A stretch of DNA of 57,951 nucleotides from Acidobacteriota bacterium. GTDB taxonomy: Bacteria > Acidobacteriota > Aminicenantia > UBA2199. The notes beneath the pieces are model-generated. The model was given only the letters and a program-made list of their open reading frames with translations, made no database searches and was not told the DNA's origin. The position numbers and the translations under genes were made by a program. The stretch's first letter is position 1. Every line of letters starts with the position of its first letter. Shown one piece after another: positions 7,254 to 57,951 of this stretch. Location of the stretch: assembly GCA_022711715.1 (NCBI GenBank), contig JAKLEC010000004.1, forward strand, positions 1 through 57,951, in the 5' to 3' direction.

Positions 7254-7364
7254 AAAGGTAAAAGGAAAAAGTAAAAAGGTAAAAGTGAAGCGGGCAATTT
7301 CCGAACCGGTTGCATGAGCGATTTTTTTGCTTACTTTTCCCTTTTTCCTTTTACCTTTTTCCTT
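7254..7364. repeat. Purine-rich module (AAAAGGT-type tract, 7254..7291) and its pyrimidine-rich inverted copy (7329..7364), forming a long imperfect hairpin just 3' of eno
   Basis: aaaggtaaaaggaaaaagtaaaaaggtaaaagtgaagc, about 37 nt of loop, then gcttacttttccctttttccttttacctttttcctt. Hand pairing gives a bulged stem of about 30 bp. Confidence 0.8.
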
Positions 7365-7378
7365 ATTAGTATTTGCCG

Positions 7379-8596
7379 ATGAATACGCCAGACAATCCCG
7401 TCGGCCGCAATCTGTGGAAGATCGTGGCCCTGAAGTTCCTCGGCGATTTCCTGCCCATCGCGCCGGTCCTGATCCTCTTTTATACGGCCAACGGACTGAA
7501 TTCCACGCAGATCTTCACCATCCAGGCCGTGTTCCACCTGGCGGTGCTGCTGCTGGAGGTCCCCTCCGGCTACCTGGCCGACGTGATCGGCCGCAAGCGC
7601 ACCCTGGTATTCGGCGCGATCTTCTTCCCGCTGGGGCTCGCCCTCTACACCAGCGGCCGGAGTTTCGCCGCCTTCATCGCCGCCGAGACGCTGCTGGCCG
7701 TCAGCGTCAGCATGCGCTCGGGCTGCGACTCGGCGCTGCTTTTCGACAGCCTGCGCCAGCTCGGCCGCGAGGGGGAGTACAAGCGCTTCGAGGGGCGCTG
7801 CGCCCTGTTCGCCCGCACCGGCACGGCGGTCTCCTCGGTGGCCGGCGGCCTGCTGGCCGCGGTCTTCCTGCGCCTGCCCTTCCTGGTCAACACGGCCGCC
7901 GCGCTGCTCATGCCGGCGCTCTCCCTGGGCCTGAGCGAGCCCGAGCGCGAAAAGCGGCCCGGCAAGAACCCGCTGCGCGACATCCTGCGCATCTGCCGCG
8001 ACTGCCTGCTGCGGGCCTCCATCCGGCCGCTGATCCTTTCCTGCGGGCTGCTCATGGCCAGCAACCTGACCGCCCTCTGGGCGTACTTCCTCCTCTACCA
8101 GGAGCTCGGCATCGGCGTCGGCTGGTTCGGCGTCCTATTCGCCGTCTTCCAGCTGGCCGGCGCCCTGGGCGGGGCGGTCGCCCATCCCTTCAGCGAGCGA
8201 TTCGGGCATCGGCCGCCGCTGTTCCTGGCCCTGCTCAGCCCCTTGTTCTATGTCCTGATCGGCCTGTTCCCCAGCGCCCGGCTGCTGCCGCTGGTTATGG
8301 CCAACGCCTTCCTCTGGAACCTGGCCTACCCGGTCCTTTTGGAGCGGCTGAACCGCCAGGTCGGCTCCGACGTGCGCGCTACCGTCCTCTCGCTGGCGGG
8401 CATGGCGGGCAGCGTGACCTTCATCGTGGTTGCGCCCCTGTTCGGCCGCCTGGTCGACGCCGTCTCCCTGTCCGCCGCTTTCGTCGCCCTGGGGGCGTTT
8501 TTCCTCCTGGCTGGCGGCTGGCTGCTGGCGGCCATGCTCCGGAACTGGCCAGAAGCCGAGGCAAGGCAAAAGGCAAAAGGCGAAAGGCAAAAGTGA
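7379..8596 (+). CDS. MFS transporter
   Basis: Multi-TM protein with an MFS-like loop motif GYLADVIGRKRT. The ORF track starts at TTG 7373 and the first ATG is 7379. The last ~13 codons and the stop lie inside an AAAGGC repeat tract. Confidence 0.8.
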   Translation: MNTPDNPVGRNLWKIVALKFLGDFLPIAPVLILFYTANGLNSTQIFTIQAVFHLAVLLLEVPSGYLADVIGRKRTLVFGAIFFPLGLALYTSGRSFAAFIAAETLLAVSVSMRSGCDSALLFDSLRQLGREGEYKRFEGRCALFARTGTAVSSVAGGLLAAVFLRLPFLVNTAAALLMPALSLGLSEPEREKRPGKNPLRDILRICRDCLLRASIRPLILSCGLLMASNLTALWAYFLLYQELGIGVGWFGVLFAVFQLAGALGGAVAHPFSERFGHRPPLFLALLSPLFYVLIGLFPSARLLPLVMANAFLWNLAYPVLLERLNRQVGSDVRATVLSLAGMAGSVTFIVVAPLFGRLVDAVSLSAAFVALGAFFLLAGGWLLAAMLRNWPEAEARQKAKGERQK

Positions 8597-8681
8597 AAAC
8601 CGTTGCCTGGCGATGTTTTTCTGATTTTAGAAGTTCGTTGAATGCTGTTGCTATCACTGACACAAACACGAACACTAACAC
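8558..8681. repeat. Repeat modules at the MFS 3' end: an AAAGGC/AAAAGG tract (8558..8600) plus a WAACAC hexamer tract (8651..8681, reverse form of the GTGTTW module)
   Basis: gaggcaaggcaaaaggcaaaaggcgaaaggcaaaagtgaaaac, then ..gctgttg ctatcactgacacaaacacgaacactaacac. Confidence 0.8.
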
Positions 8682-8745
8682 GGAGAGATCGTTCTTCTCT
8701 CTCCTCGGGTGCTTGGAATTTTGAGTTTGATTCAAGGGGGAATCG

Positions 8746-11127: not shown

Positions 11128-13242
11128 ATGAAAAAGAAGATCACGGTATCGTGGATCTGCGCCGCCGTCGCGCTGGCGCTGCTTGCTTCGCCGCTGGCGG
11201 CGCAGAAGAACCCCAAGGACAAGTTCGACTTTCCCAAGCTGGGGGCGCTGCGCACCCCGCCGGTGCTGCAGAAGACGATGAAGAACGGCATCCGCCTGTT
11301 CCTCATCGAGGACCACCGTTTTCCCACCATTGACCTGCGCGGCATGTTCTTCGCCTCCTCGGCCTTCGAGCCCGCGTCCAAGGCCGGCTTGGCCGGACTC
11401 ACCGGCACGGTGCTGCGCACCGGCGGTGCCGGGGCGCTGAGCGGCGACGAGATCGACCGCCGGCTGGAGACCATGGCCGCCGACATCGAGACCGGCATTG
11501 ACAGCGAGAGCGCCTCGGTCTACGTTTCCATGCTCAGGGAGAGCCTGGACAAGGTATTGCCGATCTTCGCCGACGTCCTGCGCCGGCCGCGCTTCGAGGC
11601 GGAGAAGATCGATCTGGCCAAGATCGAGGCGCGCAGCGCCATCTCGCGGCGCAACGACGACGTCGGTCAGATCGCCGAGCGCGAGTTCATCAAGCTGATC
11701 TACGGGGCCGACAGCCCCTATGCCCGCCAAAATGAGTACGCCACCATCGACGCCGTCGGCCGCGACGACATGCTCGCCTTCTACCGCGAGTACTTCCACC
11801 CCGACAACCTGTGGCTCGCCGTCTGGGGCGACTTCGACAGCCGGCAGATGGCGCGCAAGCTCGAGGCGGTCCTCGGCGACTGGCCGGCCTCCGGCCGCAA
11901 GCTGCCTTCCCTGCCCGAGGTGAGCTACGACTATCCGCGCACGGTCAACCTGGTCGAAAAGGGGGACGTCAACCAGTCGAACATCGCCGTCGGCCATATC
12001 GGCGGACTGCTGAGCGATCCCGACTACGCGGCGCTCTCGGTGATGAACCGCATCCTCTCCTTCGACCGCATGTTCAAGAGGATCCGCACCGACGAGGGGC
12101 TGGCCTACTCGGTATGGGGCTACTACGGTGCCGGCTACAAGGTTCCGGGAGCGTTTTCCGCCGGCGCCCAGACCAAGTCGGAGTCGACGGTCAAGGCCAT
12201 CACGATCATGCTGGAGGAGATGAAGCGCCTCCGCGAGCAGGAGGTCAGCGACGAGGAGCTGCGGCGCGCCAAGGACCAGTTCCTCAACTCCTACGTCTTC
12301 CAGTTCGACAGCCGCGCCAAGATCATCCGCCGCCTGCTCACCAACGCCTACTACGGCTACCCGCTCGACTTCAATGAGCAGCTGATCCGCCGCATCGAGA
12401 CGGTGACCAAGGCCGACGTGCTGGCGGCGGCGCAAAAACACCTGCGCCCCGACCAGGTGCAGGTGCTGGTGGTGGGCAAGAGCGCCGACTTCGATCAGCC
12501 GCTGAGCACGCTGGGAAAGGTGAACCTCATCGACATCGCCATCCCGCTGCCGGCCGGCGAGAAGGGGCCCGAGGCCACCGCCGAGTCGCTGGCCCAGGGA
12601 CAGGAGCTCTTCGCCAAGGCCGTCGCCGCCATGGGCGACCCGGCCAAGGTCATGGCCGTGCGCGGCATGCGCATGGAAGGCGACCTGCTGCAGAGCACGC
12701 CGATGGGCGAGATGACCCTGGCCGCCGAGGTCGTCACCGCCTATCCCGACAAGGTGCGCTTCGCCCTCGACACCCCCGGCGGCAGGATGAACATGATCGT
12801 CAACGGCGCCAAGGGGATCATCCGCATGCCCCAGGGCTCCATGCCCCTGCCCGAGGCCGAGCGCAAGAACATCCTGGACAACTTCCTGCGCGAACCGTTC
12901 TATGTATGGCAGAACGCCGGCCAGTACAAGATCCAGGCGCTGGGGCGCCTGCCCTTTGCCGGCCAGGAGGCGCTTGCCCTGGCCATCTCCGGAAGGGGAG
13001 TGGAGTTCCGCCTGTTCCTGGACCCGCAGACGATGCTGCCCCTGGGCAATTCCTATTCGTCGGTGACCCAGGAGGGGCCGGCAACGGTCGAGGAACGCCT
13101 TTCCGACTACCGCGACGTGGACGGCGTCAAGGTCCCGTTCAAGACCGAGTCCTGGGCCAACGGCAAAAAGGTCTCCGCCCAGACCGTCAAGACGCTGCAA
13201 CTGAATCCCGAGGCCAAGGAAGAGCTGTTCAAGGTCGAGTAG
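11128..13242 (+). CDS. M16 family peptidase-like protein lacking HxxEH (non-catalytic partner) with a ~230-aa C-terminal extension
   Basis: Signal peptide MKKKITVSWICAAVALALLASPLAA. M16 fold-like N-half with GLAGLTGTVL in place of HxxEH. The extra C-terminal domain (residues ~470-704) looks possibly LolA-like, unverified. Confidence 0.75.
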   Translation: MKKKITVSWICAAVALALLASPLAAQKNPKDKFDFPKLGALRTPPVLQKTMKNGIRLFLIEDHRFPTIDLRGMFFASSAFEPASKAGLAGLTGTVLRTGGAGALSGDEIDRRLETMAADIETGIDSESASVYVSMLRESLDKVLPIFADVLRRPRFEAEKIDLAKIEARSAISRRNDDVGQIAEREFIKLIYGADSPYARQNEYATIDAVGRDDMLAFYREYFHPDNLWLAVWGDFDSRQMARKLEAVLGDWPASGRKLPSLPEVSYDYPRTVNLVEKGDVNQSNIAVGHIGGLLSDPDYAALSVMNRILSFDRMFKRIRTDEGLAYSVWGYYGAGYKVPGAFSAGAQTKSESTVKAITIMLEEMKRLREQEVSDEELRRAKDQFLNSYVFQFDSRAKIIRRLLTNAYYGYPLDFNEQLIRRIETVTKADVLAAAQKHLRPDQVQVLVVGKSADFDQPLSTLGKVNLIDIAIPLPAGEKGPEATAESLAQGQELFAKAVAAMGDPAKVMAVRGMRMEGDLLQSTPMGEMTLAAEVVTAYPDKVRFALDTPGGRMNMIVNGAKGIIRMPQGSMPLPEAERKNILDNFLREPFYVWQNAGQYKIQALGRLPFAGQEALALAISGRGVEFRLFLDPQTMLPLGNSYSSVTQEGPATVEERLSDYRDVDGVKVPFKTESWANGKKVSAQTVKTLQLNPEAKEELFKVE

Positions 13243-13258: not shown

Positions 13259-13295
13259 GGCGGGGCGCCCTCAGGCGCCCCGCCTTTTTTATTTT
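13259..13295 (+). terminator. Rho-independent terminator after the M16 pair
   Basis: Perfect 11-bp stem ggcggggcgcc / ggcgccccgcc with a 4-nt loop, followed by ttttttatttt. Confidence 0.8.
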
Positions 13296-15352: not shown

Positions 15353-15634
15353 ATGCCCTGGTTCCTGTACCTGCTCCGTTGCGGCGACGGCTCGCTTTAC
15401 ACGGGAATCTCCAACGACGTGGCGCGCCGCCTGGCCGCCCATCGCGCCGGCCGCGGGGCGCGATACCTGCGGGGCCGGGGGCCGCTGACCCTGGTGCGCC
15501 GCATCCGCGTCGGCAGCCGCAGCGACGCCCTGCGGGCCGAGCACCGGGTCAAGAGCCTGAAGAAAGAGCGCAAGGAAAAGCTGGCCCTGGGCAAGGTCAG
15601 GCTGAAGGATATTCTGAATAACGATCTATCGTGA
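15353..15634 (+). CDS. GIY-YIG nuclease family protein (UPF0213-like)
   Basis: MPWFLYLLRCGDGSLYTGISNDVARRLAAHRAGRGARYL is the GIY-YIG signature. The stop codon lies inside the ATCGTGACG start of a repeat arm. Confidence 0.85.
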   Translation: MPWFLYLLRCGDGSLYTGISNDVARRLAAHRAGRGARYLRGRGPLTLVRRIRVGSRSDALRAEHRVKSLKKERKEKLALGKVRLKDILNNDLS

Positions 15635-15721
15635 CGCGTAACGCGTAACGCGTGACGCGAAGCAGCAAAGGATCGAGCGATTGCGGTTTCTCGTCACTCG
15701 TCACGCGTCACTCGTCACGAT
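15628..15721. repeat. Inverted pair of the GTCACGC/GTTACGC heptamer module, forming a long hairpin between convergent genes
   Basis: The left arm atcgtgacgcgtaacgcgtaacgcgtgacgcg (15628..15659) and the reverse complement of the right arm ctcgtcactcgtcacgcgtcactcgtcacgat (15690..15721) match at about 27 of 32 positions. The loop is about 30 nt. Confidence 0.85.
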
Positions 15722-15736
15722 GGTTCGTGTGAGTCC

Positions 15737-16231
15737 CTAGCCGCCCGACGTCTGCGGGAAGGCCGTGTTGGAATACAGGTACTCGACCTTCTCCTTGTGC
15801 TTCAGCTCCTGGTTGGCCATGGCCAGCAGCATGTCCTTCACTTCGCCGGCGGGCTGCGCCTCGGCCAGGCCGGAATAGAACTTGTAGGAGTTCCACTCGC
15901 GGTGGGCGGCGACCAGGTAGACCTCGCTGCTGTTCATGTTCTTCTTGGGGTCGGGCTTGGCGGCGTACTCCGCGACGTGGTAGTCGATCGGCGTCTCCAT
16001 GCCCAGGGCGGTGAACTTCTTCTCGCCCTTCAGGTAGGCCTCCAGGAACTCCTTGTGGGCCTTTTCCTCGCCGGCCAGAAACAGCAGCGTTTCCCTGGCC
16101 AGCTTGTCCTCGACCCGGTCGTGCAGGCCGAGGTAGAAAGTGCGGGCCTCCTCCTCGTTCTTGATGGCGAGCCCGATCAGGCTGCGCAGGCTGTTGTCTT
16201 GCATGTCTTTCCTCCTTGCTTCCTTCTTCAA
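15737..16231 (-). CDS. Ferritin-like / rubrerythrin-family di-iron protein
   Basis: 164 aa with ExxH-type helices: AIKNEEEARTFY, LAGEEKAHKEFL, AMANQELKHKEKVEYL. Confidence 0.7.
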   Translation of the reverse strand: MKKEARRKDMQDNSLRSLIGLAIKNEEEARTFYLGLHDRVEDKLARETLLFLAGEEKAHKEFLEAYLKGEKKFTALGMETPIDYHVAEYAAKPDPKKNMNSSEVYLVAAHREWNSYKFYSGLAEAQPAGEVKDMLLAMANQELKHKEKVEYLYSNTAFPQTSGG

Positions 16232-17340
16232 AGGCTGAGTTGGGCGCTGAACATGAGCTGGCCGGTCTTCACCTTGTCGGACTGGAAATGGCGGCTTTCG
16301 AACAGGGCATACTCCAGGCCGAAACTGACGCCCGAGCCGGCGGCGAACTGGATGCCCGCCAGCAGGGCGGCGGTCTTCTTCAGCTCGCGCGCGGCCAGCT
16401 GCTCCTCGTCATGCAGGTCCTCGAAGGCATAACCCAGCCAGCCGCTCCACTTGCCCCTGGCCAGCAGCAGCTCCGACCAGAAGGAAGAGGCCTTCTTGCC
16501 GGTCAGCTCCTGGGCCGCCGGGTCGGCATGGATGGCGGCGCGGCTCATCACATAGGCCAGGTTGGCGCCGGTGGCAAACTCGCCCTTCAGCGACAGGTGC
16601 TTGCAGAGGGCCAGGCTCCAGTCGGCGCCGATGCCGGCCATGTCGACCTTGTTCTTGAAGGCGATCCCGGTCAGGGCGGCGTTCTCGCGGCCGTAGATCC
16701 CCGAAAGTCCGAGTTGGTATTTTGCGCCTGCGCCCAGCTTGAGTCCCAGGCGCGACTGCAGCACCGGCATCCGGGCCGACCAGCCGCCGGCGGTCGCCGG
16801 GTCGCTGACGGAGAGGGCCGCGCTGAAATGGGGAGCCTCATAGGCGTAGCGCACCTGGGCGTGGCGGAAGCCGAGGTTGCCGGTCTGCCATAGGTAGCCG
16901 TTGATCATCAGCGTGGTCGGCCCCAGCGGCGAGAACAGGTCCCAGGCCTGGCCGAAGAGCAGGCTGTGCCCCTTCCTGCCCAGGGTGAAATAGCCCTGGC
17001 GGAAGCGCGGCTTCATCTGGTTGGGCGTCGTGGCGTCGAAGAAGTCGAACTCCAGGACGGCGGCGAGGTTCACGCCTTTGGCCAGGGGCGTTCCGGCGTA
17101 CTTGAAGCCGAAGCGGGTGTGGGTGGCCGAGAGGTAGAGGCTGCCGTCGCCGGCCACGGCGTAGCGGGGAAAGGTCAGGCCGTTGATTCCCCCGTCCTGG
17201 CAGGCGGCGTCGAGCTTGAAGAAGCCGTAGAGGTGCAGTTTGTTCTTTTCCGTGTCGACCAGGGCGATGTCGGCGAAGGCCGGCAGGCCCGAGAGAAGGA
17301 TCGCGGTGCAGAGGAAACAAAACAGGACGGTTCGTTTCAT
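16228..17340 (-). CDS. Putative outer-membrane beta-barrel porin
   Basis: Signal peptide MKRTVLFCFLCTAILLSGLPAFA, with alternating beta-strand-like sequence throughout. Its stop overlaps the downstream rubrerythrin-like start by 4 nt. Confidence 0.6.
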   Translation of the reverse strand: MKRTVLFCFLCTAILLSGLPAFADIALVDTEKNKLHLYGFFKLDAACQDGGINGLTFPRYAVAGDGSLYLSATHTRFGFKYAGTPLAKGVNLAAVLEFDFFDATTPNQMKPRFRQGYFTLGRKGHSLLFGQAWDLFSPLGPTTLMINGYLWQTGNLGFRHAQVRYAYEAPHFSAALSVSDPATAGGWSARMPVLQSRLGLKLGAGAKYQLGLSGIYGRENAALTGIAFKNKVDMAGIGADWSLALCKHLSLKGEFATGANLAYVMSRAAIHADPAAQELTGKKASSFWSELLLARGKWSGWLGYAFEDLHDEEQLAARELKKTAALLAGIQFAAGSGVSFGLEYALFESRHFQSDKVKTGQLMFSAQLSL

Positions 17341-17405
17341 GTGGACCTCGCTAGTTTTCTGCCATTCTACCCGATTGGCCGGTTCATTTCAACGGAACCA
17401 AGCAT

Positions 17406-17718
17406 CCGTGTCCGTGACGGTGACCGTGTCAGCAAGAAACCGCTCAACGATTACTTTGTGTTAGTGTTTGTGTTAGTCAATGCCAGAGCCGACCTCTTGC
17501 TGTTGCGAATCCCGAATTACGAATCACGAATTACGATAGGCCCTTTGTTGTTTCCTTTCACGCATAACGCATAACGTATAACGATAGGTTGTTGTTTTCC
17601 GTACGCCGTACGCCGTGCGCCGAGTCCAGTTCGTCCCCGTCACTCGTTTCTTGTCACGTGTCACGATCGGTCGATCCGATGCTGTTCTCGTCACGCGTCA
17701 CGCGTTACGCGTCACGAT
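17406..17718 (+). repeat. Full seven-module mosaic repeat array (module order M1-M2-M3-M4-M5-M6-M7)
   Basis: M1 GTGWCN hexamers 17406..17433. M2 GTGTTW 17455..17476. M3 ACGAATY heptamers 17505..17537. M4 ACGCATA 17558..17585. M5 GTACGCC 17599..17622. M6 GTCAC-type 17638..17667. M7 GTCACGC/GTTACGC 17687..17718. Confidence 0.9.
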
Positions 17719-17732
17719 AGCTCGTTGCTTTT

Positions 17733-18470
17733 TCAATAATTGATCAGGATGGGCCTGGGCTTGAGCACGTGGCCGACCAGCGCCAGGCCGCTGCGGCGGA
17801 CGACGGCCAGCGCCCGCGTGGTCAGCGTGGTCTGCGACACCAGGAGCGGGACGCCGGCCTGCAGGCACTTGAGCGCCATCTCGGCCGAGACGCGGCCGGT
17901 GGTGAACAGGCCGCAGCGGCCGAAATCGATGCCGGCGGCGAGCCCCCAACCGATCACCTTGTCGACGCTGTTGCTGCGGCCGATGTCCTCGCGGCTGGCC
18001 AGGATGCGCCGGCGGTCCATGTCGGCCAGCATGGAGCAGTGGATGCCGCCGTGGCGGCGGAAGCGGGCCGCCCGGCCGGGGAGTTGCTCCATTAGGGCGA
18101 CGGCCTGCGCCAGGGTGAACGTGAAGCCGCGGCGCACGCGGGGCGGAGCGGAGTACCTCCGGGCCGGCATGGCCCCGCCCGAGGGCCCTGTCACCTGGTC
18201 GGGGTCGAAGCGCAGGCCGCCGCGGCGCAGCCGGACCAGCGCCCGGCCGCCGGCCAGGCGCAGCGAGGCCAGGTCATTGGCCGAGGCGATCAGCCCCTGG
18301 CTGAAGATCCAGCCCAGGGCCAGCTCGCGGCGGCCGAAAGGGGAGCAACTGAGGCTCGCCAGCGGCCGGCCGTCGACCACGACGGTCAACAGCGTCTCCG
18401 CCGGCAGGTCGACCAGGCCGATCTGCCGCCGTTCAGGCGTCCCTGCCCTTCCGGCTCTCAATGTAGGCAT
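17733..18470 (-). CDS. fdhD: Formate dehydrogenase accessory sulfurtransferase FdhD
   Basis: GGIHCSML..REDIGRSNSVDKVIGW..TTGRVSAEMALKCLQAGVPLLVSQTTLTTRAL. The 5' end as drawn overlaps the mobA 3' end by 38 nt, so the true start may be internal. Confidence 0.8.
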   Translation of the reverse strand: MPTLRAGRAGTPERRQIGLVDLPAETLLTVVVDGRPLASLSCSPFGRRELALGWIFSQGLIASANDLASLRLAGGRALVRLRRGGLRFDPDQVTGPSGGAMPARRYSAPPRVRRGFTFTLAQAVALMEQLPGRAARFRRHGGIHCSMLADMDRRRILASREDIGRSNSVDKVIGWGLAAGIDFGRCGLFTTGRVSAEMALKCLQAGVPLLVSQTTLTTRALAVVRRSGLALVGHVLKPRPILINY

Positions 18471-20070: not shown

Positions 20071-20107
20071 GTATCACAGCCTTTGCATATTTTCAAATAT
20101 CGAACTC

Positions 20108-20234
20108 AGGGAAAGGCAGAGGGAAGAGTCAGGGATGGCAGAGGGAAGAGCGTGTGGGAAAAAGCCCTTTCCAAACCTCCTTCCCACTTTATCTTCCCTC
20201 TGTCTTTCCCTCTGCCTCTCCCTCTCTCTTTCCT
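20108..20234. repeat. Purine-rich AGAGGGA-type module (20108..20150) with a pyrimidine-rich inverted copy (20187..20234)
   Basis: agggaaaggcagagggaagagtcagggatggcagagggaagag ... ctttatcttccctctgtctttccctctgcctctccctctctctttcct. Strongly strand-asymmetric imperfect inverted repeat. Confidence 0.8.
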
Positions 20235-21491: not shown

Positions 21492-21659
21492 AAGGTTCGA
21501 CGTTCGAGGTTCGACGTTCGACGTAACGAAAACCAACTCGCTTGGGTGCCGAAGAGGTCTAGTCAGGGGCTGATCGTTATTTCTGAAAGATCACGATCGA
21601 AGATCTGTAAATTGCTGTTACTTGTCACGCGTCACGCGTTACGCGTTACGCGTCACGAT
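21492..21659 (+). repeat. Partial repeat array: a GTTCGAS heptamer tract (21492..21528) and the M7 tract GTCACGC/GTTACGC (21621..21659)
   Basis: aaggttcgacgttcgaggttcgacgttcgacgtaacg, then tcacgatcg..attgctgtta linker signatures, then cttgtcacgcgtcacgcgttacgcgttacgcgtcacgat. Confidence 0.8.
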
Positions 21660-22378: not shown

Positions 22379-22409
22379 CTCCTTCGCGCCGTATTATACA
22401 CGAGTTCAG

Positions 22410-22713
22410 CGTCCGTGACAGTGCCCAGGGGAACCCCAACGACCTCTTTGTGTTAGTGTTTGTGTTTGTGTTGGCAAACGCAAGAGCTGACCTCTTGCTG
22501 TTACGAATCACGAATGACGAATTACGAATTACGATTGATCCCTTGCTTTTTCTCATCACGCATTACGCATAACGCATGACGATAGATCCAGATGTTGTTC
22601 CTCGTCACTCGTCACCCTGGATCGTACCGTGCTGTTGCCGTACGCCGTACGCCGTATGCCGTACGCCTTACGCCGAGTTCATTCCGTTCTCGTCACGCGT
22701 CACGCGTCACGAT
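22410..22713 (+). repeat. Full mosaic repeat array (order M1-M2-M3-M4-M6-M5-M7) ending 8 nt from the stop of the AmpG-family gene
   Basis: M1 22410..22425, M2 22447..22474, M3 22501..22535, M4 22553..22583, M6 22601..22617, M5 22637..22675, M7 22689..22713. Confidence 0.9.
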
Positions 22714-24205: not shown

Positions 24206-24262
24206 GGTTTCAGAATGGTAGTACAGCGGCTAGGAGATGTAAATAGGGCGAGTTAATGCGGC

Positions 24263-24540
24263 CTGTGACGAGAACGGAATGAACTCGGCATACGGCGCAC
24301 GGCATACGGCGTACGGCAACGGCTCGATACGATCCGGGGTGATGAGGAACAGAAGCATCTGGATCTATCGTTATGCGTTATGCGTGAAAAGAAACAACAA
24401 GGGGCCTATCGTAATTCGTGATTCGTAATTCGTGATTCGCAACAGCAATAGACCGGCTCTTGCATTTGCTAACACTAACACAAACACGAACACAAAGAGG
24501 TCGTTGAGTTTCTTGCTGACACTGTCACCGACACCGACAC
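24263..24540 (-). repeat. Mosaic repeat array in reverse orientation (M7 remnant-M5-M6-M4-M3-M2-M1 read left to right on the + strand), abutting the tilS stop codon
   Basis: 24265..24289 is the exact reverse complement of 22672..22696 (25 nt). The modules cggcatacggcgcacggcatacggcgtacggc, atcgttatgcgttatgcgtga, atcgtaattcgtgattcgtaattcgtgattcgc, ctaacactaacacaaacacgaacacaaa and gctgacactgtcaccgacaccgacac are all present. Confidence 0.9.
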
Positions 24541-25908
24541 CTAGGGCTTGATCGAAATCCTAACGAACGGCCCTTTGTCGCCGTCCTGGACGGCGAAGGC
24601 GGCGGCCAGGGGCGAGCCGCAGGCCCAGACCAGCCGGCCGTCGCCATTCTCCAGCACCGGCCGCAGCGGCCGCAGCGGCGCCGGCACTCCCGAGGCGCGG
24701 ACCATCTCGATCACGGCTTGCCGGTAAGGTGAGTGGATCTTGCGGTACTTGTCGCCCGGCTTTGGCGGCCGCAGGCGCAGGGGGAAGCGCAGCTTCCCCT
24801 CGGCCACGACGACGGAGAAGTTGTCCCGCGGCGGCTGGAAGCGGCCGGTCCGGCTCACCGTCACTGCCGCCCCGATCTCCGGGATGGACCGGCGGCCCGT
24901 GCCCGTGACCTCGAGGCGATAGCCCTTGACGCGCAGGGAGTCCGGATGGATCCAGCCCTTGGCGAAGCTCAGGTTCACTCCCGGCAGGGAGAGTCCGCGG
25001 CCGGTCTCCACGCTCTCCAGGAAGGCGGCGACGTGCTCGCTGCCGATCCCCAGCAGGTCGCCCTTGACCCGGCGCAGGTACTCGCGGGCCAGGTGGCGGG
25101 CCATGGCCGGGTGCAGCCCGGCGAAGGCGCGAGCCGGCAGGACGCTCCCCAGCCGGAGCTCGCGCTCCAGGATGCGCCGCGTCTCCTGCTGGAAGTGGTC
25201 GAACTCGTCCTGCAGCAGGAGCACGGTGCGGAAGACGCGGTCCTCGACGTCGGGCTCGATGGCCCGCGCCGCCGGCATCAAGTCGTGGCGGATGCGGTTG
25301 CGCAGGAAGTCGTGTTCCAGGTTGGTCGGGTCGCGATAGAAGGCGATGGCGTTGCGCTCCAGGAACGCCAGGACCTCCCCGGAGGAGAAGACCAGCAGCG
25401 GGCGGACGATGTGCCTTTCCTTGCTGGCATAGATCGCCGAGAGCCCCTGCAGGCCGCTGCCGCGGAAGAGCTTGATGAAGAAGGTCTCGGCCAGGTCGGA
25501 GCGGCTGTGGGCCGTGGCGATGCGCACCGGGCCGGAGCCGGCCGGGGCCAGCCGCCGCGCCAGCGAGTGGAAGAAATCGTAGCGCGAGATCGAGGCGGCG
25601 TGCTCGAGGTTCAGCCGGTTCTCCTCGCGGAAGCGCCGCACGTCGCGGCCGCCGGTCTCGAGCTCGATGCCGCGGCCGGAGCAGAAGGCGCGCGCCCACT
25701 CCTCCTCGGCAGCGGCGTCGGGGCGCAGGCGATGGTTGAAGTAGGCGGCGACCAGGCGAAAGGGGAGGAACCTCCGCAGTTCCTGCAGCAGGACGGCGGC
25801 GGCGACCGAGTCCTTGCCGCCGGAAAAGCCGAGGACGACGGTATCGCCGGGGAGAATGAGGCCGTGGCGCTCGATATTGTCCTTGAACGGCGGGAAGAGG
25901 AGCTTCAT
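24541..25908 (-). CDS. tilS: tRNA(Ile)-lysidine synthase TilS
   Basis: PP-loop VVLGFSGGKDSVAAAVLL. The start is taken at MKLLFPPFKD (ATG 25908), because the 504-aa track ORF extends through the tRNA gene. Confidence 0.88.
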   Translation of the reverse strand: MKLLFPPFKDNIERHGLILPGDTVVLGFSGGKDSVAAAVLLQELRRFLPFRLVAAYFNHRLRPDAAAEEEWARAFCSGRGIELETGGRDVRRFREENRLNLEHAASISRYDFFHSLARRLAPAGSGPVRIATAHSRSDLAETFFIKLFRGSGLQGLSAIYASKERHIVRPLLVFSSGEVLAFLERNAIAFYRDPTNLEHDFLRNRIRHDLMPAARAIEPDVEDRVFRTVLLLQDEFDHFQQETRRILERELRLGSVLPARAFAGLHPAMARHLAREYLRRVKGDLLGIGSEHVAAFLESVETGRGLSLPGVNLSFAKGWIHPDSLRVKGYRLEVTGTGRRSIPEIGAAVTVSRTGRFQPPRDNFSVVVAEGKLRFPLRLRPPKPGDKYRKIHSPYRQAVIEMVRASGVPAPLRPLRPVLENGDGRLVWACGSPLAAAFAVQDGDKGPFVRISIKP

Positions 25909-25942
25909 GGCCACCCCGGCGGTCCCCAGGGAGAGGGGAAAA

Positions 25943-26015
25943 TAGCGGCGGAGGGAATTGAACCCCCGACATAACGGATATGAGCCGTCTGCTCTACCAA
26001 CTGAGCTACGCCGCC
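25943..26015 (-). tRNA. tRNA with anticodon CAU: elongator tRNA-Met or tRNA-Ile2 (lysidine type); not an initiator
   Basis: Hand-folded cloverleaf: GGCGGCG TA GCTC AGTTGGTA GAGC A GACGG CTCATAT CCGTT ATGTC GGGGG TTCAATT CCCTC CGCCGCT A. 73 nt, G1-U72 wobble, no encoded CCA. It lacks the initiator 1x72 mismatch and the three G-C pairs in the anticodon stem. Confidence 0.9.
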
Positions 26016-26076
26016 ATACAGGGCCAATTATACCCGAAACCGCAGAGCTTCGCAATATGGGAACAGACGACCTTTC

Positions 26077-26252
26077 CTGACGCGTAATGCGTGACGCATG
26101 ACGGGGAACAGCAGCATCTGGATCAATCGTTATGCGTTATGCGTAATGCGTTATGCGTGATGAGAAACAGCAAATAACCTATCGTGAATCGTGATCCGCA
26201 ACGGAAAGATATCGGTTCATGCTGTTACTAACACTATCACTAACACTAACAC
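26077..26252 (-). repeat. Partial mosaic array in reverse orientation (M7-like, M4, M3, M2), ending 10 nt before the stop codon (26263..26265) of the TPM-domain gene
   Basis: ctgacgcgtaatgcgtgacgcatgacgg, atcgttatgcgttatgcgtaatgcgttatgcgtga, atcgtgaatcgtgatccgc, ctaacactatcactaacactaacac. The linker gaacagcagcatctggatcaatcgttatgcg is nearly identical to 24348..24378. Confidence 0.85.
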
Positions 26253-26262
26253 TGCGTTCGTT

Positions 26263-27600
26263 TTAGAACTTTCTGCTGGCTCCGCCGCCGCCGGAGCGGC
26301 CGCCGCCGAACGAGCCCGAGGGACGCGAAGAGCCGGCCGAGGATGAACTTGGCGTGGAGAGGCGCGGCGTCGAGGACTCCCGGGTCTTGGCGTAGTTGCA
26401 CTTGGGGTTGAGGCAGGTCTCGGTGGTCCGCGTCCTTCCGCCTTGCTCCCTCGTGGCCGCCAGCAGGGTGGTCGTGCTCGATTTCAGGGTGCGGCGCCCG
26501 CATTGCGGGCACTTCGACGCCTTGCCCAGCTTCACGGCCAGCTTCTCGTCGGCGCCGCACTTCGGGCAGCGCCAGAACTCGTAGTCCATGCCGCCCGCCT
26601 TCTCCTCGGCCGCCTCCTCGGTGCTCAGCATCACGTCGTCCTCGCTGTCGGCGGCCATGTCCATGGCGGCGCCGCACTTGACGCAGGGGAGATGGTAGGA
26701 GTCGAGGCGCTTTTTCAGCACCCGGCCGGTGAAAAGGCGGCCGAATGTGGCCAGCCCCGGCGCGGCCAGCATGGCCACGAACGGCGTGAGGAAGTCCTTG
26801 CCGAAGCCGAGGACCAGGAAGAAAGAGATCACGCCGCCGATCCAGGCCAGGATGACGCTGGCGGGCGTGCCGCCGGCGATCCTGGCGCGGGCGGCCCGGC
26901 CGCGCGCCTTGTTGAAACGCGCCATGGTGAGGCCGATGGCCAGCAGGGCGAAGGCCAGGATGCCGCCCCCGAAGTACAGGGAGGAGCGCAGCGGGTCCCA
27001 CTTCCCCTTCTTCTTCGGCTGGGGGAGGTTTTTGGGCTTGGGCGGCACCGCCTCGGCCGGCCAGGCCGTCGGCTCGGTGATCGTCAGGGGAACGTCGCCG
27101 GCGGCCTGTATGGCGACGTTGCGGGCGGCCAGGAACAACCCGCGGCCGAAGCGGCCGTCGCGGAGCTGGGCCAGCGCCTCGCGCTCGAGCAGGCGCGAGG
27201 CCAGGGCGTCGGGGATGTCCCCTTCCAACCCGTAGCCCACCTCGAGGCGCACCAGGCGTTCGTCGCGCGAGCAGAGCAGGAGCAGTCCGTTGTCCTTGCC
27301 CTTCACGCCGATGCCGAAGCGGCGGAACACCTTCTCGGCGAACTCCTCGATGACCAGGCCGCCCAGGTCGCCGACCGTGACCACGGCCAGCTCGGCCGTC
27401 GTCTTCGCCTGCAGCTCGCGGCAGACGCCGTCGATCAGCGCCCGGTATTCCGGGGACAGGACGCCGCCGCCGTCGGAGACGAAGGAGTTGTCGGCGCGTC
27501 GCGGGTTGACGACCTCGTCGGGCGATTCGGCCGCCAGCGGCAACAGCAGGGCGGCGATGGCGAGAAAGGGCAGCAGGGAGCGGGTCCGGTACATGCGCAT
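26263..27600 (-). CDS. TPM-domain (YgcG-like) membrane protein with a C-terminal multi-zinc-ribbon region and a Gly-rich tail
   Basis: Signal MRMYRTRSLLPFLAIAALLLPLAA. TPM motifs AELAVVTV..KDNGLLLLCSRDERLVRLEVGYGLEG. TM segments. Four CxxC pairs (CVKCG, CPKCG, CPQCG, CLNPKC). Tail GSFGGGRSGGGGASRKF. The ATG at 27600 is preceded by ggagga. Confidence 0.75.
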   Translation of the reverse strand: MRMYRTRSLLPFLAIAALLLPLAAESPDEVVNPRRADNSFVSDGGGVLSPEYRALIDGVCRELQAKTTAELAVVTVGDLGGLVIEEFAEKVFRRFGIGVKGKDNGLLLLCSRDERLVRLEVGYGLEGDIPDALASRLLEREALAQLRDGRFGRGLFLAARNVAIQAAGDVPLTITEPTAWPAEAVPPKPKNLPQPKKKGKWDPLRSSLYFGGGILAFALLAIGLTMARFNKARGRAARARIAGGTPASVILAWIGGVISFFLVLGFGKDFLTPFVAMLAAPGLATFGRLFTGRVLKKRLDSYHLPCVKCGAAMDMAADSEDDVMLSTEEAAEEKAGGMDYEFWRCPKCGADEKLAVKLGKASKCPQCGRRTLKSSTTTLLAATREQGGRTRTTETCLNPKCNYAKTRESSTPRLSTPSSSSAGSSRPSGSFGGGRSGGGGASRKF

Positions 27601-34658: not shown

Positions 34659-34742
34659 TTCGTGATTCGTAATTCGTAAAAACAATAGCCGAGCCATTGC
34701 TGTTTTCTTCCGAATTACGAATTACGTCTCACGAATTGCGAA
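34659..34742. repeat. Inverted pair of the ACGAATY heptamer module, forming a hairpin 3' of the S51 gene
   Basis: ttcgtgattcgtaattcgtaa, about 30 nt including the attgctgtt linker signature, then ccgaattacgaattacgtctcacgaattgcgaa. Confidence 0.8.
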
Positions 34743-35910: not shown

Positions 35911-36030
35911 CAAAGGAAAAAGGTAAAAGTCAAAAGGTAAAAGGTGAAAGTGGAAGGCCCTTTATCGGTGAAGTGTCAAGATATTTAGTTCTGTGATTGC
36001 TGTTGCTAACACTAACACTATCACTATCAC
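35911..36030. repeat. Purine-rich AAAAGGT module (35911..35957) plus a WAACAC/ATCACT hexamer module (36005..36030)
   Basis: caaaggaaaaaggtaaaagtcaaaaggtaaaaggtgaaagtggaagg ... ttgctgttgctaacactaacactatcactatcac. Confidence 0.8.
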
Positions 36031-36042
36031 TTCTTTTTGCGG

Positions 36043-48927: not shown

Positions 48928-49003
48928 ATCGTGACGCGTGACGCGTAACGCGTGACGAGGAGCCGCGTGGGAACGACCTGTCGTGACGCGTCACGCGTCA
49001 CGC
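48928..49003. repeat. M7 heptamer module (reverse form, 48928..48959) plus a palindromic GTGACGCGTCAC tract (48981..49003)
   Basis: atcgtgacgcgtgacgcgtaacgcgtgacgag ... tcgtgacgcgtcacgcgtcacgc. Confidence 0.8.
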
Positions 49004-55966: not shown

Positions 55967-56046
55967 GTACTTGGCGTACGGCCGGCGGCCTCGACGGACC
56001 GCCGCGGCGTACGGTTGACGGCAACAGCATTCATGAAGAACTCGGT

Positions 56047-56293
56047 GCCAGTGTCAGTGATGATGTCAGCAGGAAGCTCAGCGGCTTCCTTGTGTTCGTG
56101 TTTGTGTTAGCAAACGCATGAACCGATCTCTTGCCGTTTCGAATAACGAATCACGACAGATCCCTTGCTGTCTCTCATCCCGCATCACGCATGACGCATA
56201 ACGAGAGAACTAGATGCGGCTCATCCTCGTCACCCTGGATCGTATCGTGCTGTTGCCGTACACCGTATGCCGTACGCCGTGAGCCGTACGCCG
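56047..56293 (+). repeat. Mosaic repeat array (order M1-M2-M3-M4-M6-M5, no M7) between convergent genes, preceded by a GTACGGC-type hairpin at about 55975..56016
   Basis: gccagtgtcagtgatgatgtcagc, cttgtgttcgtgtttgtgttag, ttcgaataacgaatcacgac, cccgcatcacgcatgacgcataacgag, ctcgtcaccc, gccgtacaccgtatgccgtacgccgtgagccgtacgccg. 56226..56264 matches 22608..22646 at about 37 of 39 positions. Confidence 0.9.
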
Positions 56294-56303
56294 AGCTCGG
56301 CAT

Positions 56304-57951
56304 TCAGTTCAGGTAAGGGCTAAGCTCCAGCACGGACGGCGGATTGCTCTGCTTCCTGAAGTACTCCGGCACGAGGGCCATGCCCAGGGCCGCCTCATCG
56401 GCGGTGCGGTAACGGCCCCAGAGCACCAGCCAGCAGGCTCGGCCGTCGCGGCTGGTCTTGTTGAGCAGGAAGAAGCCATCCTTGTCGGCCAGCTGGCCGT
56501 AGGCGGCGCGCACCGACGCCTTCAGGCAATCCATCTCCAGCAGGATGCTGAACTTGACGCCGGATTCCAGCATGATGCCGCGCCAGATGTCGCCCGCCGC
56601 CTTGAAGTTCCCGGTGGCGAAGCGCCGGCCGGCCTCCGCTTCGCCTTCCCGGGAGGGAGCGGGCGGGGGGTTGGCCGCGGTGACGGCTGGCGTGTCCGGC
56701 GGCAGCTCCGTGCGGCTCGGACCGGAGCCGGGCTTCTGCTCCGCGTCAGGAAGGGAGCCGGGCTCGGTGGTTTCCCGGGCGGCGCTCTCTTTCTCGCCGG
56801 CGACGGCAGTCCCGGCCGCGGACTCCTGCGCCGGGGGGGCCGCCTTGGGCGGCGCCTGGCGGGTCGCCGTCGCCTTCGCCGCCTCCGGCGCCCGCGGCTT
56901 GCCGTCGCGGGTGATCCACAGGAACGCGCCGGCGATGGCGGCCACCAGCAGGATCGTGAGCAGCGGCATGCTCGGCAGGCGCGACTTCGCCTTCTCCGGC
57001 CTCTGGAACGGGGCCGGATGCGGCCGCGGCCGCGGCTCCGGCTTCGCAGGCGCGATCTCCGCCTTGTCCTCCGTCGCCGCCGCGGCCGTTTCCGGCGGCA
57101 GCAGGTCGGGGAACTCGGGCAGTTCCCGCTCCGCCGCCGCCTCTTGCTGCGGCTCGATCTCCGGCACCGCGGCCAGGGGGATGTCCTGGATGGCCGTTTC
57201 GTCGATCATGGCCGGCATCTCGATGTCGACCTCGGCGGGGGCGTCGGCCGGCGACTGGCCGAACATGCTGTCCAGCTCCCCGAAGTCGATGCCGGCCGGC
57301 TTCTCGGCTTCTTTTTTGGTCAGCAATCCCGACAGCAGGAAGAAATAAAGGATCTTCAGGATGCGGTATTTCCCCTCGGCGGGATAGTCGAGAAGAACGG
57401 ATTCCAGCCGCTGGGGCTGGCTGAAGCGCGAGAGCACGCCCTGCATCTCGGTGTCGAGGGGATAGCGGCTCCTCTGGGTGGGATCGGGATTCATCTGCAG
57501 CTCTCCCGCCATGGAGCCCAGCTCCTCCCAGACGATGTTCACGTCCATCTGTCCCAGGATGTACTGGATGACGATGACGGGGATGTCCAGGTCCAGGCTC
57601 ACCATGCGATTGGGGGGCGGCTCCTGCACGAGCTGGTAGTTGCCCGTGCTCCAGCGCAGGACGCTCATGGCGATGAGGCGGGCCTGCTCGCGCGTGGCCT
57701 GGATCAGGACCTCCAGGGTGATGACCCCGTTCTCGACCAGGATCTTGCCGAACGTCTCGCTGATCTTGTTGCCGGCCTGGTAGGGGGCGAGGGCATTGGG
57801 ATCGATCAGCTTCTTGGCCAGCAAGACATGATCGATGCGGTCGGCCTCGTCGGCGGAGATGGCCCAGCTGATCCGGCCGCGGTTGAGATAGAATACCTTC
57901 AGCAGCTCGTTCTGGCGGAAGTAGAGGATGCCGGTCTGCTCCTGTTCGTGC
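56304..57951 (-). CDS. DUF4388 (PatA-like N-terminal) domain protein with an Ala/Pro-rich linker, a TM and a C-terminal SPOR-like domain. The 5' end runs off the window.
   Basis: The frame stays open upstream of the track start: HEQEQTGILYFRQNELLKVFYLNRGRISWAISADEADRIDHVLLAKKL (DUF4388-like). TM LLTILLVAAIAGAFLWI. The C-terminus ACWLVLWGRYRTADEAALGMALVPEYF looks SPOR-like. Confidence 0.65.
   Translation of the reverse strand, partial: HEQEQTGILYFRQNELLKVFYLNRGRISWAISADEADRIDHVLLAKKLIDPNALAPYQAGNKISETFGKILVENGVITLEVLIQATREQARLIAMSVLRWSTGNYQLVQEPPPNRMVSLDLDIPVIVIQYILGQMDVNIVWEELGSMAGELQMNPDPTQRSRYPLDTEMQGVLSRFSQPQRLESVLLDYPAEGKYRILKILYFFLLSGLLTKKEAEKPAGIDFGELDSMFGQSPADAPAEVDIEMPAMIDETAIQDIPLAAVPEIEPQQEAAAERELPEFPDLLPPETAAAATEDKAEIAPAKPEPRPRPHPAPFQRPEKAKSRLPSMPLLTILLVAAIAGAFLWITRDGKPRAPEAAKATATRQAPPKAAPPAQESAAGTAVAGEKESAARETTEPGSLPDAEQKPGSGPSRTELPPDTPAVTAANPPPAPSREGEAEAGRRFATGNFKAAGDIWRGIMLESGVKFSILLEMDCLKASVRAAYGQLADKDGFFLLNKTSRDGRACWLVLWGRYRTADEAALGMALVPEYFRKQSNPPSVLELSPYLN

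Follow-up and report, generated by a model that had tools for sequence, protein, structure and literature searches.

What kind of element is the row of short tandem tracts, here called array A, that forms a ~320-base spacer between two minus-strand genes on contig JAKLEC010000004.1 of an Acidobacteriota bacterium, and does its regular appearance reflect a ruler or a history? The analysis covers this stretch of 57,951 nucleotides, the window (58 kb of the source genome), and ~150 kb of relatives, which were retrieved via the 370-aa protein encoded next to array A. It is well supported that array A is a single copy of a dispersed, non-coding mosaic repeat specific to Candidatus Aminicenantes, a composite variant of bacterial heptamer repeats. 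About seven modules (M1 to M7) of ~40-55 bp follow one another in a fixed order on the two sides of a small palindrome at the centre, and five copies of this composite, A to E, are found in the window. To the whole reading, in which the mosaic heptamer repeat is reshuffled at the level of modules and is mostly tolerated spacer DNA, we give an even chance. The sequence of array A is identical in the NCBI, Joint Genome Institute (JGI) and European Nucleotide Archive (ENA) assemblies, so the array is real and not an assembly artefact.

The modules share a polar frame. A forward module starts with TCTTGYTGTT, continues with 0-8 pyrimidine-rich bases and 3-6 units, and ends in ACGAT(A/C)G. M3 to M7 point rightward and M1 and M2 leftward, so the modules point outward from the central palindrome, see Table 1. 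M1 and M2 do not differ in kind but lie on the opposite strand, where TTTCTTGCT and TTGCGTTTGCT precede them; read on the minus strand, M1 is (GACACG/GTCACC)n, with TTTCTTGCT before the tract and two GTGAC sites inside, and M2 is (TAACAC/AAACAC)n. Both ends of the frame are tied to tracts: TTGYTGTT occurs 10 times in the window, where 0.99 is expected, each time directly 5' of a tract, and all 11 matches to ACGATWG lie at tract 3' ends with the matching polarity. The M1-type motif TTTCTTGCT also stands 5' of tracts on the reverse strand, both in relatives and in copies B, C and E. The central palindrome is degenerate in array A and clearer in copy B (TTGGCAAACGCAAGAG / CTCTTGCTGTTACGAA; 16 nt, 75% complementary, 5-nt loop). 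The junction of M2 and M3 is an imperfect palindrome, GCAAACGCAAGAG-loop-CTCTTGCTGTTGC, which gives a consensus hairpin at alignment columns 240-258.

A preliminary description of array A had taken ACG followed by four further bases as the theme common to its tracts. The unit core extends beyond ACG and forms a broken palindrome, (C/A)(G/A)T-n-ACG, whose centre is free. The units of M3 (AATnACG), M4 (CATnACG) and M7 (CGTnACG) differ at bases 1-2 only (AA, CA and CG) and have T-n-ACG in common. Among 64 units of these three modules, split out from all copies, variation is confined to position 4 (H = 1.1-1.7 bits), with T3, A5, C6 and G7 essentially constant. M5 is another arrangement of the same half-sites, ACG-c-CGT, or CGTACG plus C. 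The proposed divergence from an ancestral unit agrees with the common polar frame and with the restriction of differences between M3, M4 and M7 to two bases, and it is well supported that the modules are paralogues of one proto-module, the ACG-type units being one-step variants of (C/A)(G/A)T-n-ACG. The further proposal that each copy homogenised its own heptamer goes too far. Homogenisation is incomplete, as n varies inside the tracts, and the pattern C-T-C-T at n is common to copies A and C and is therefore inherited rather than re-homogenised.

The core is dense in the arrays. GTNAC reaches 17.6 sites per kb in arrays against 1.2 per kb elsewhere (14-fold) and CGTNACG is 73-fold denser, against 1-4.7-fold for control broken palindromes, figures that are partly circular because the arrays are defined by their tracts. 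Array A itself has nine GTNAC and seven ATNAC sites, and thus carries the GTnAC pattern of EbfC/YbaB sites. Enrichment of 5-mers in the flanks of tracts, measured against a whole-genome background, was set aside since the AT-rich spacers confound it. The hexamer ACGCGT has 19 of its 21 window sites inside arrays, leaving 2 outside where 6.5-14.6 are expected, depending on the Markov order. Other 6-bp palindromes (TCGCGA, ATGCAT, AAGCTT, ACCGGT) are rare as well. Avoidance of ACGCGT as a restriction site was rejected, because several other palindromes are rare outside the arrays too and the sample is small.

Table 1. Features of array A, its flanks and the five composite copies in the window (TRF, Tandem Repeats Finder).
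Feature	Position	Strand	Remarks
M1, hexamer tract GTGWCN x ~4.3	17405-17431	-	reverse polarity; TRF 17405-17430, period 6
M1 linker motif	17431-17439	-	AGCAAGAAA on the + strand, TTTCTTGCT on the - strand
M2, hexamer tract TTTGTG/TTAGTG x 3.3-3.8	17455-17477	-	reverse polarity; TRF period 6/12
Composite centre	17480-17508	.	imperfect palindrome CCAGAG-CCGAC-CTCTTG, modules pointing outward
Linker motif TTGCTGTT	17497-17504	+	5' of M3
M3, (AATnACG) x ~4, n = C/T	17505-17539	+	end ACGATAG (17533-17539); TRF 17506-17536, period 7/14
Linker motif TTGTTGTT	17545-17552	+	5' of M4
M4, (CATnACG) x ~3.4	17558-17587	+	end ACGATAG (17581-17587); TRF 17560-17583, period 7
Linker motif TTGTTGTT	17589-17596	+	5' of M5; M6' of B, C, D and E missing here
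M5, (CCGTACG) x 3.4	17599-17624	+	run of CGTACG palindromes; TRF 17599-17622, period 7
M6, degenerate GTCAC-type tract	17638-17669	+	end ACGATCG (17663-17669); no TRF call
Linker motif TGCTGTT	17680-17686	+	5' of M7
M7, (CGTnACG) x 4, n = C/T	17687-17720	+	end ACGATAG (17714-17720); TRF 17689-17716, period 7
Shared right terminus CTCGTT	17721-17726	+	last bases homologous between A and B
Composite copy A	17405-17720		
Composite copy B	22400-22700		
Composite copy C	24261-24544	reverse	
Composite copy D	26068-26291	reverse	
Composite copy E	56041-56319		
FdhD-family gene	17733-18470	-	Pfam E = 5e-44; stop codon 17733-17735, beside the right end of the array
370-aa gene	16228-17340	-	no Pfam match; downstream of array A
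Promoter-like site of the 370-aa gene	17364-17392	-	TTGAAA-17 nt-TAGAAT; kept in relatives without an array here

All seven tracts stand where the preliminary description had put them. Tandem Repeats Finder calls six, while the sixth in order (17638-17668) is readable but too degenerate for a call: M6 consists of the heptads CGTCACT, CGTTTCT, TGTCACG and TGTCACG followed by AT. M3, M4, M5 and M7 have period 7, with 3.4-4.0 copies and 88-94% matches. The units ACGAATY, ACGCATA, ACGCCGT and ACGCGTY are present, as are three ACGCGT palindromes in M7, the four tract ends in YACGAT followed by A or C and then G (M3, M4, M6 and M7), and the shared linker ends. M1 and M2 are, however, hexamer tracts without ACG, so not all tracts are heptamers of the ACG type.

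The regularity itself is a matter of module size. The starts of the tracts are 49, 50, 53, 41, 39 and 49 bases apart (mean 46.8, sd 5.5), which agrees with units of ~47 bp but not with a true period. The autocorrelation of array A peaks at lag 7 (z = 7.0), with z = 4.2 for lag 14, and has no value above 3.8 (lag 51) between lags 35 and 60; in the whole family the module spacing ranges over 35-94 bp (mean 58, sd 20) and tracks the length of the tracts. A true 47-bp period was therefore rejected in favour of a loose module size. Similarly, the heptad register is shared in composition but not in position, as the phases of ACG modulo 7 are 5, 4, 5, 2 and 4 in M3 to M7, and a single register through the whole array was rejected. 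The 47-bp spacing and the ACG register would then be by-products of modular descent and not a ruler. A CRISPR array was also rejected, as the linkers share only a motif of 7-10 nt and the "spacers" are microsatellites that are re-used at other loci.

Array A belongs to a family. Similar arrays occupy 14 intergenic gaps of the window, 2,559 bp in total (4.4%), with 49% GC against 67% overall, and the window has 44 tracts of period 6 or 7 where ten shuffles have 0-2. The five copies of the ~300-bp composite were found with a profile built from an alignment (nhmmer E = 1e-52 to 1e-88). Linkers as well as tracts are conserved among them, with 86.6% identity between A and C over 179 bp. Conserved module order had been set beforehand as a check on the array, and the five copies are collinear; they differ in that whole modules are gained or lost. 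An apparent swap of M5 and M6 between copies was rejected after re-alignment, which resolved it into whole-module insertions and deletions. Array A had been called canonical, but it lacks M6' (enclosed by GATCCAG...CTGGATC), which is present in B to E, and compared with copy B it has one M7-type module more, its M6. With respect to the flanking genes the composites run either way, in co-directional, convergent and divergent gaps.

The same units are used again and again, with ACGCGTC in 7 tracts of the window, AATTACG in 6, and AACGCAT and ACGCCGT in 5 each. Short-read contigs terminate within the arrays (Logan contigs L003-L005 and L149-L157, from several public runs), with ends at window positions 17698, 17542, 21631, 22638 and 24432, i.e., in tracts of A, B and C and in a tract at 21624. 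This shows that the repeat is present elsewhere in the genome and that the arrays fragment short-read assemblies of this organism; a limited, re-used repertoire together with contig breaks inside arrays is what is expected for dispersed repeats. A second composite family was also seen (8563-8682, 35912-36031 and L008 173-373), in which (AAAGGYA)n is followed by a linker of 50-70 nt, TGCTGTTGC and (TAACAC)n. Its hexamer tract has the same linker motif before it and is opposite in orientation to M2 of array A.

Nine related Aminicenantes genomes, with 67-90% identity for the neighbouring protein, carry arrays. The units ACGCGTC, AAAAGGC, AACACT and ACACTG are shared with relatives, while AACGTCT, AAATTCC and AACCGTC are species-specific. 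The same M1-M2 start and the CTTGYT linker recur, with CTTGYT upstream of tracts 13 times against 2.3 expected in eight relatives. ACG or CGT is present in 44 of 67 non-coding heptamer tracts of the nine genomes, against 13.6 +/- 3.2 for letter-shuffled units, and about one third of the tracts of the family are A-rich types without ACG or CGT. Two of the close relatives, L008 and L009, are titled "uncultured Clostridia bacterium" in public records, which looks like a labelling error.

Array content at orthologous sites turns over fast. The spacer between FdhD and the 370-aa gene has no array in six relatives (67-77% protein identity), where it is 80 nt long and only the promoter is conserved. 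In three other relatives (73-90% identity) it has different module sets, and L007 shares the M6-M5 segment only. The empty sites are too diverged for defining insertion boundaries. No length polymorphism of array A is seen across the independent samples and assemblies examined.

A different kind of conservation is found where tracts occur as inverted pairs. The convergent GIY-YIG / rubrerythrin site (15630-15718) has an inverted tract pair in every one of ten genomes, and all ten fold into long hairpins (z = -3 to -10.8), which between them use five or more heptamer types. Over 2.6 kb one strain differs nowhere else: all 53 of its differences lie inside 15589-15743, where units GACGCGT are replaced by GATTCGT in both arms of the hairpin; this is a single strain comparison. 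The inner stem of the hairpin is the linker motif, AGCAAGA / TCTTGCT. Sensitivity to the strand, tested by the asymmetry of G.U pairs, gave no preference for the inverted pairs, as some orthologues favour each strand, and the test was dropped because of this inconsistency. The left hairpin arm of L003 hardly differs from that of L013, a distant relative (in relatives L007-L014 the site lies at ~11600-11800). The 93-aa GIY-YIG frame (15353-15634) ends within the first heptamer of the left arm, and by eye the frame appears to continue through the whole left arm before a stop in several relatives. Long hairpins of inverted pairs also stand at 7254-7364, 20106-20233, 34659-34742 and 48930-49003, two of them between divergent genes upstream of a promoter-like site; their units are AAAGGTA, a 12/22-nt CAGAGGGAAGAG unit, AATTACG and ACGCGTC.

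We suggest that new copies of a composite would arise in the intergenic gaps that separate a stop codon from the promoter that follows, and that copies would then gain, lose or replace whole modules; the turnover is observed, while the mechanism behind it would probably be ectopic recombination or gene conversion via the shared linkers and cores, together with replication slippage inside tracts. The sole support that the data give for a function is structural, as the hairpin shape of inverted tracts seems to be kept while the sequence is replaced. Composites in direct orientation such as array A are members of the family that most likely persist as tolerated spacer DNA, and any role they have would be independent of orientation, e.g., separating transcription units. 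Several points weigh against this reading of the mosaic repeat as mostly tolerated DNA. A neutral spacer leaves unexplained both the invariant T3, A5, C6 and G7 around a free position 4 and the ~3-fold enrichment of ACG/CGT and TnAC cores across species, which together look like a constraint on each unit. The copy number in array A is constant across independent samples, so active slippage lacks support. Neither a transposase (among the ~30 window proteins scanned) nor target-site duplications or terminal inverted repeats were found, so we can only infer the mechanism of copying.

An invariant core with a free centre is what a DNA-binding dimer centred on n would produce. The tracts may be landing pads for a small dimeric protein that reads GTnAC or (C/A)(G/A)T-n-ACG at steps of 7 bp and coats a tract cooperatively, so that an array becomes a protein-coated spacer that organises or insulates transcription units and the outer bases merely drift. 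We hold this to be a serious, though minority, possibility. An invariant T-n-ACG with free n is expected if the dyad of a dimer passes through n, the enrichment of GTNAC and CGTNACG over the controls is in line with it, and so are the 3-6 contiguous, gapless units, which run direct or inverted and in either orientation to genes, and the several tracts that abut promoters. There are precedents, the omega ribbon-helix-helix (RHH) dimers on WATCACW heptads (PMC9499535), which the M3 unit AATCACG fits in all but one of 7 positions, and EbfC/YbaB on GTnAC (PMC2665219). However, binding is predicted only, and among the ~30 window proteins scanned there is no candidate gene and no RHH protein, nor does the window have a YbaB gene. 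One third of the tracts (AAAGGYA, AAATTCC, AAAAGTC) are without the core and occupy the same positions and inverted pairs, M1 and M2 have a period of 6 bp, and M5 has GTAC without the central base. Hundreds of sites per genome would need a very abundant protein, and the enrichment is subject to the circularity noted above. A more specific form, in which dyad-symmetric heptads are read genome-wide by a YbaB/EbfC-like or RHH protein that polymerises along them, so that composites separate transcription units, we consider rather improbable.

The composites could instead be non-autonomous elements of the miniature inverted-repeat transposable element (MITE) type, or of the REPIN type (paired repetitive extragenic palindromes, REP), moved by a transposase that recognises the ends TCTTGYTGTT / ACGATAG or hairpins. 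Similar copies are dispersed with defined shared termini (...ACGATAGCTCGTT), sites are occupied or empty between orthologues, a cassette is replaced between strains, and inverted tract pairs resemble the REP doublets of REPINs (PMC3116915). It is nevertheless unlikely, as no recognisable terminal inverted repeats or target-site duplications are visible at the ends of the five copies, no transposase or REP-associated tyrosine transposase (RAYT)-like gene is present among the ~30 window proteins scanned against Pfam, and recombination fits copies that differ by internal modules better than cut-and-paste does. Array A could instead act as RNA, either as the 3' untranslated region of a minus-strand mobA-fdhD transcript, in which a hairpin of the reverse complements of M7 and M4 (rcM7-rcM4), paired via G.U, ends or stabilises the message, or as a separate small RNA or a sponge for an RNA protein that binds heptads; taken jointly, these are very unlikely. 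The minus strand of array A folds with z = -2.1 to -2.7 (-2.68 and -2.1), the reverse strands of B, D and E with z = -1.8 to -3.4, M4 and M7 of copy B can pair over 18 nt with 83% complementarity, and the inverted-pair relatives of the tracts are clear hairpins beside gene 3' ends. Yet the plus strand has z = +0.4 and copy C z = -0.2, the four-copy consensus fold is weak (-33 kcal/mol over 351 columns) with an unsupportive covariation term of +0.81, and no T-run follows any stem. In Rfam 15 nothing at 17300-17800 reaches E <= 1, and the sole gathering-level match in the window is a tRNA-Met. The composites lie in both orientations to genes, so the transcribed strand differs between copies, and inverted pairs have no strand preference. 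A structured RNA that spans the composite was rejected on the strand-inconsistent folds, the lack of covariation and the lack of an Rfam match. As for structure-prone DNA, which had been proposed for the tracts, M7 does fold as single-stranded DNA (-8.8 kcal/mol, z = -2.2), but the six other tracts behave like shuffles, and structure in every tract was rejected. Finally, short tandem repeats near promoters, whose copy number differs between paralogous copies, could be hypermutable contingency loci, in which slippage alters the spacing or strength of adjacent promoters (phase variation). This is extremely unlikely: array A does not differ between any of the independent assemblies examined, tracts lie upstream of -35 hexamers or after stop codons and not between promoter elements or in frames, imperfect units suppress slippage, and the flanking genes are ordinary housekeeping genes.

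Heptanucleotide repeats, described as long simple-sequence repeats (LSSR) or short tandemly repeated repetitive sequences (STRR), are known from cyanobacteria, from Xanthomonas (GGGAATC), from Nostoc (GGGGAYT) and, as TAACTGA, from Beggiatoaceae, cyanobacteria and Bacteroidetes (PMC4679880, PMC4692102). They have 2 to tens of copies, are strongly over-represented between genes in both orientations and have no known function (PMC4679880, PMC4692102); they are reported to form inverted pairs often, with 70 in X. campestris (PMC4679880, PMC4692102; Mrazek 2007 as cited there). Array A resembles them in its head-to-tail 7-nt units of at least ~3 copies (M3, M4, M5, M7), its intergenic position and its small re-used repertoire. 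It differs in that about ten unit types coexist, instead of one or a few in lone or paired tracts, that up to seven tracts are joined in order by polar linkers into a composite that is itself dispersed, and that the units are CpG-centred broken palindromes rather than G-runs or TAACTGA. Among other repeats, bacterial interspersed mosaic elements (BIME/REP) of enterobacteria, REPINs of Pseudomonas (PMC3116915) and BOX elements of pneumococcus are likewise intergenic, non-coding dispersed mosaics of a few short module types with conserved linkers, variable module number, either orientation and hairpin-forming inverted doublets. REP units are imperfect palindromes of 20-40 bp with a GTAG-type end and RAYT transposases, and the boxB repeats of BOX are 45 bp. 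Unlike REP, BIME and REPIN units, six of the seven tracts of array A do not self-fold above shuffles, and a GTAG-type end and a RAYT were not found here (~30 window proteins scanned); unlike boxB, the units are heptamers, and unlike MITEs, copies A to E have no terminal inverted repeats or target-site duplications.

The two protein systems are closer in the unit than in the setting. In parS of pSM19035, 7-10 contiguous heptads each bind one RHH omega dimer, and function requires 4 or more; the heptads form six plasmid sites, which overlap regulated promoters and adjoin the gene that encodes the binding protein (PMC9499535). Array A shares the gapless 7-bp units, direct or inverted and in sufficient number, and M3 (AATCACG/AATTACG) matches WATCACW at 5-6 of 7 positions, whereas M4 and M7 match it less. 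In contrast to pSM19035, there are probably hundreds of chromosomal sites with several unit types, no adjacent RHH gene is found among the proteins scanned, and array A overlaps no promoter, so the likeness is a functional analogy only. EbfC of Borrelia binds GTnAC with any n, and YbaB occurs in nearly all bacteria, in amounts sufficient for many sites (PMC2665219). The core of M7, M6 and M1 is exactly GTnAC with a free central base. However, the Borrelia sites are two or three isolated GTnAC motifs and not heptad tracts, and other YbaB homologues have a different or no sequence preference (PMC2665219).

In several bacterial phyla no other long simple-sequence repeats are as strongly over-represented as heptamer repeats, whose role was never established. 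The Aminicenantes family offers clues that are absent from the classic cases: related unit types side by side, a polar frame, one free position, and a hairpin shape that outlasts the swap of a heptamer even between strains with identical flanks (in the single comparison above). In the literature searched there is no description of such repeats in Aminicenantes or Acidobacteriota, and the ordered multi-module form and the shared GT-n-AC core appear to be undescribed. This core may mark a predicted protein-binding site. If so, the protein would be the first defined reader, and would give the first function, for heptamer repeats, which have been unexplained since about 1990. The clues make concrete questions possible, namely which protein binds GTnAC heptads and whether the arrays stop or stabilise transcripts. 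In practice, short-read assemblies of these uncultured genomes break at the arrays, which gene callers and repeat finders can misread.

Related patterns extend beyond this lineage. Among the matches listed for a 14-base pattern, metagenome contigs of other taxa have (CGTGATG)n / (CATCACG)n hairpins and multi-tract arrays, which points to a wider phenomenon. Intergenic inverted heptamer hairpins occur in L020, L026, L066, L069, L089, L096, L124, L129 and L133 (GC 36-66%), with the units (CGTGATG)n-loop-(CATCACG)n, (GTCAGTG)n / (CACTGAC)n and (CAGTTTT)n / (AAAACTG)n, and some of the contigs carry multi-tract arrays. Tracts of (ACGAATT)n with 3-9 copies are found in diverse IMG/VR viral contigs (L137-L146, GC 24-57%), some beside a second heptamer tract, and the Aminicenantes composite was not found in the viral-contig scans.

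The surroundings of array A are ordinary. The window is 99.99% identical to contig DAOOTP010000006.1 of the metagenome-assembled genome GCA_035390365.1 and to a JGI digester contig, and its ~30 proteins scanned against Pfam are ordinary chromosomal genes. Array A ends ~12 nt upstream of the -35 hexamer of the 370-aa gene and does not overlap the promoter; both a promoter and a terminator reading of the array were rejected. A canonical intrinsic terminator (13259-13284; 11-bp GC stem and T-run) follows the second M16 peptidase gene, so the organism also uses ordinary terminators; a tract pair lies 110 nt beyond it. At lower coordinates than copy D there is a minus-strand tRNA-Met gene (anticodon CAT, 25942-26016) with its own promoter-like site, which an open reading frame of the listing spuriously overlaps.

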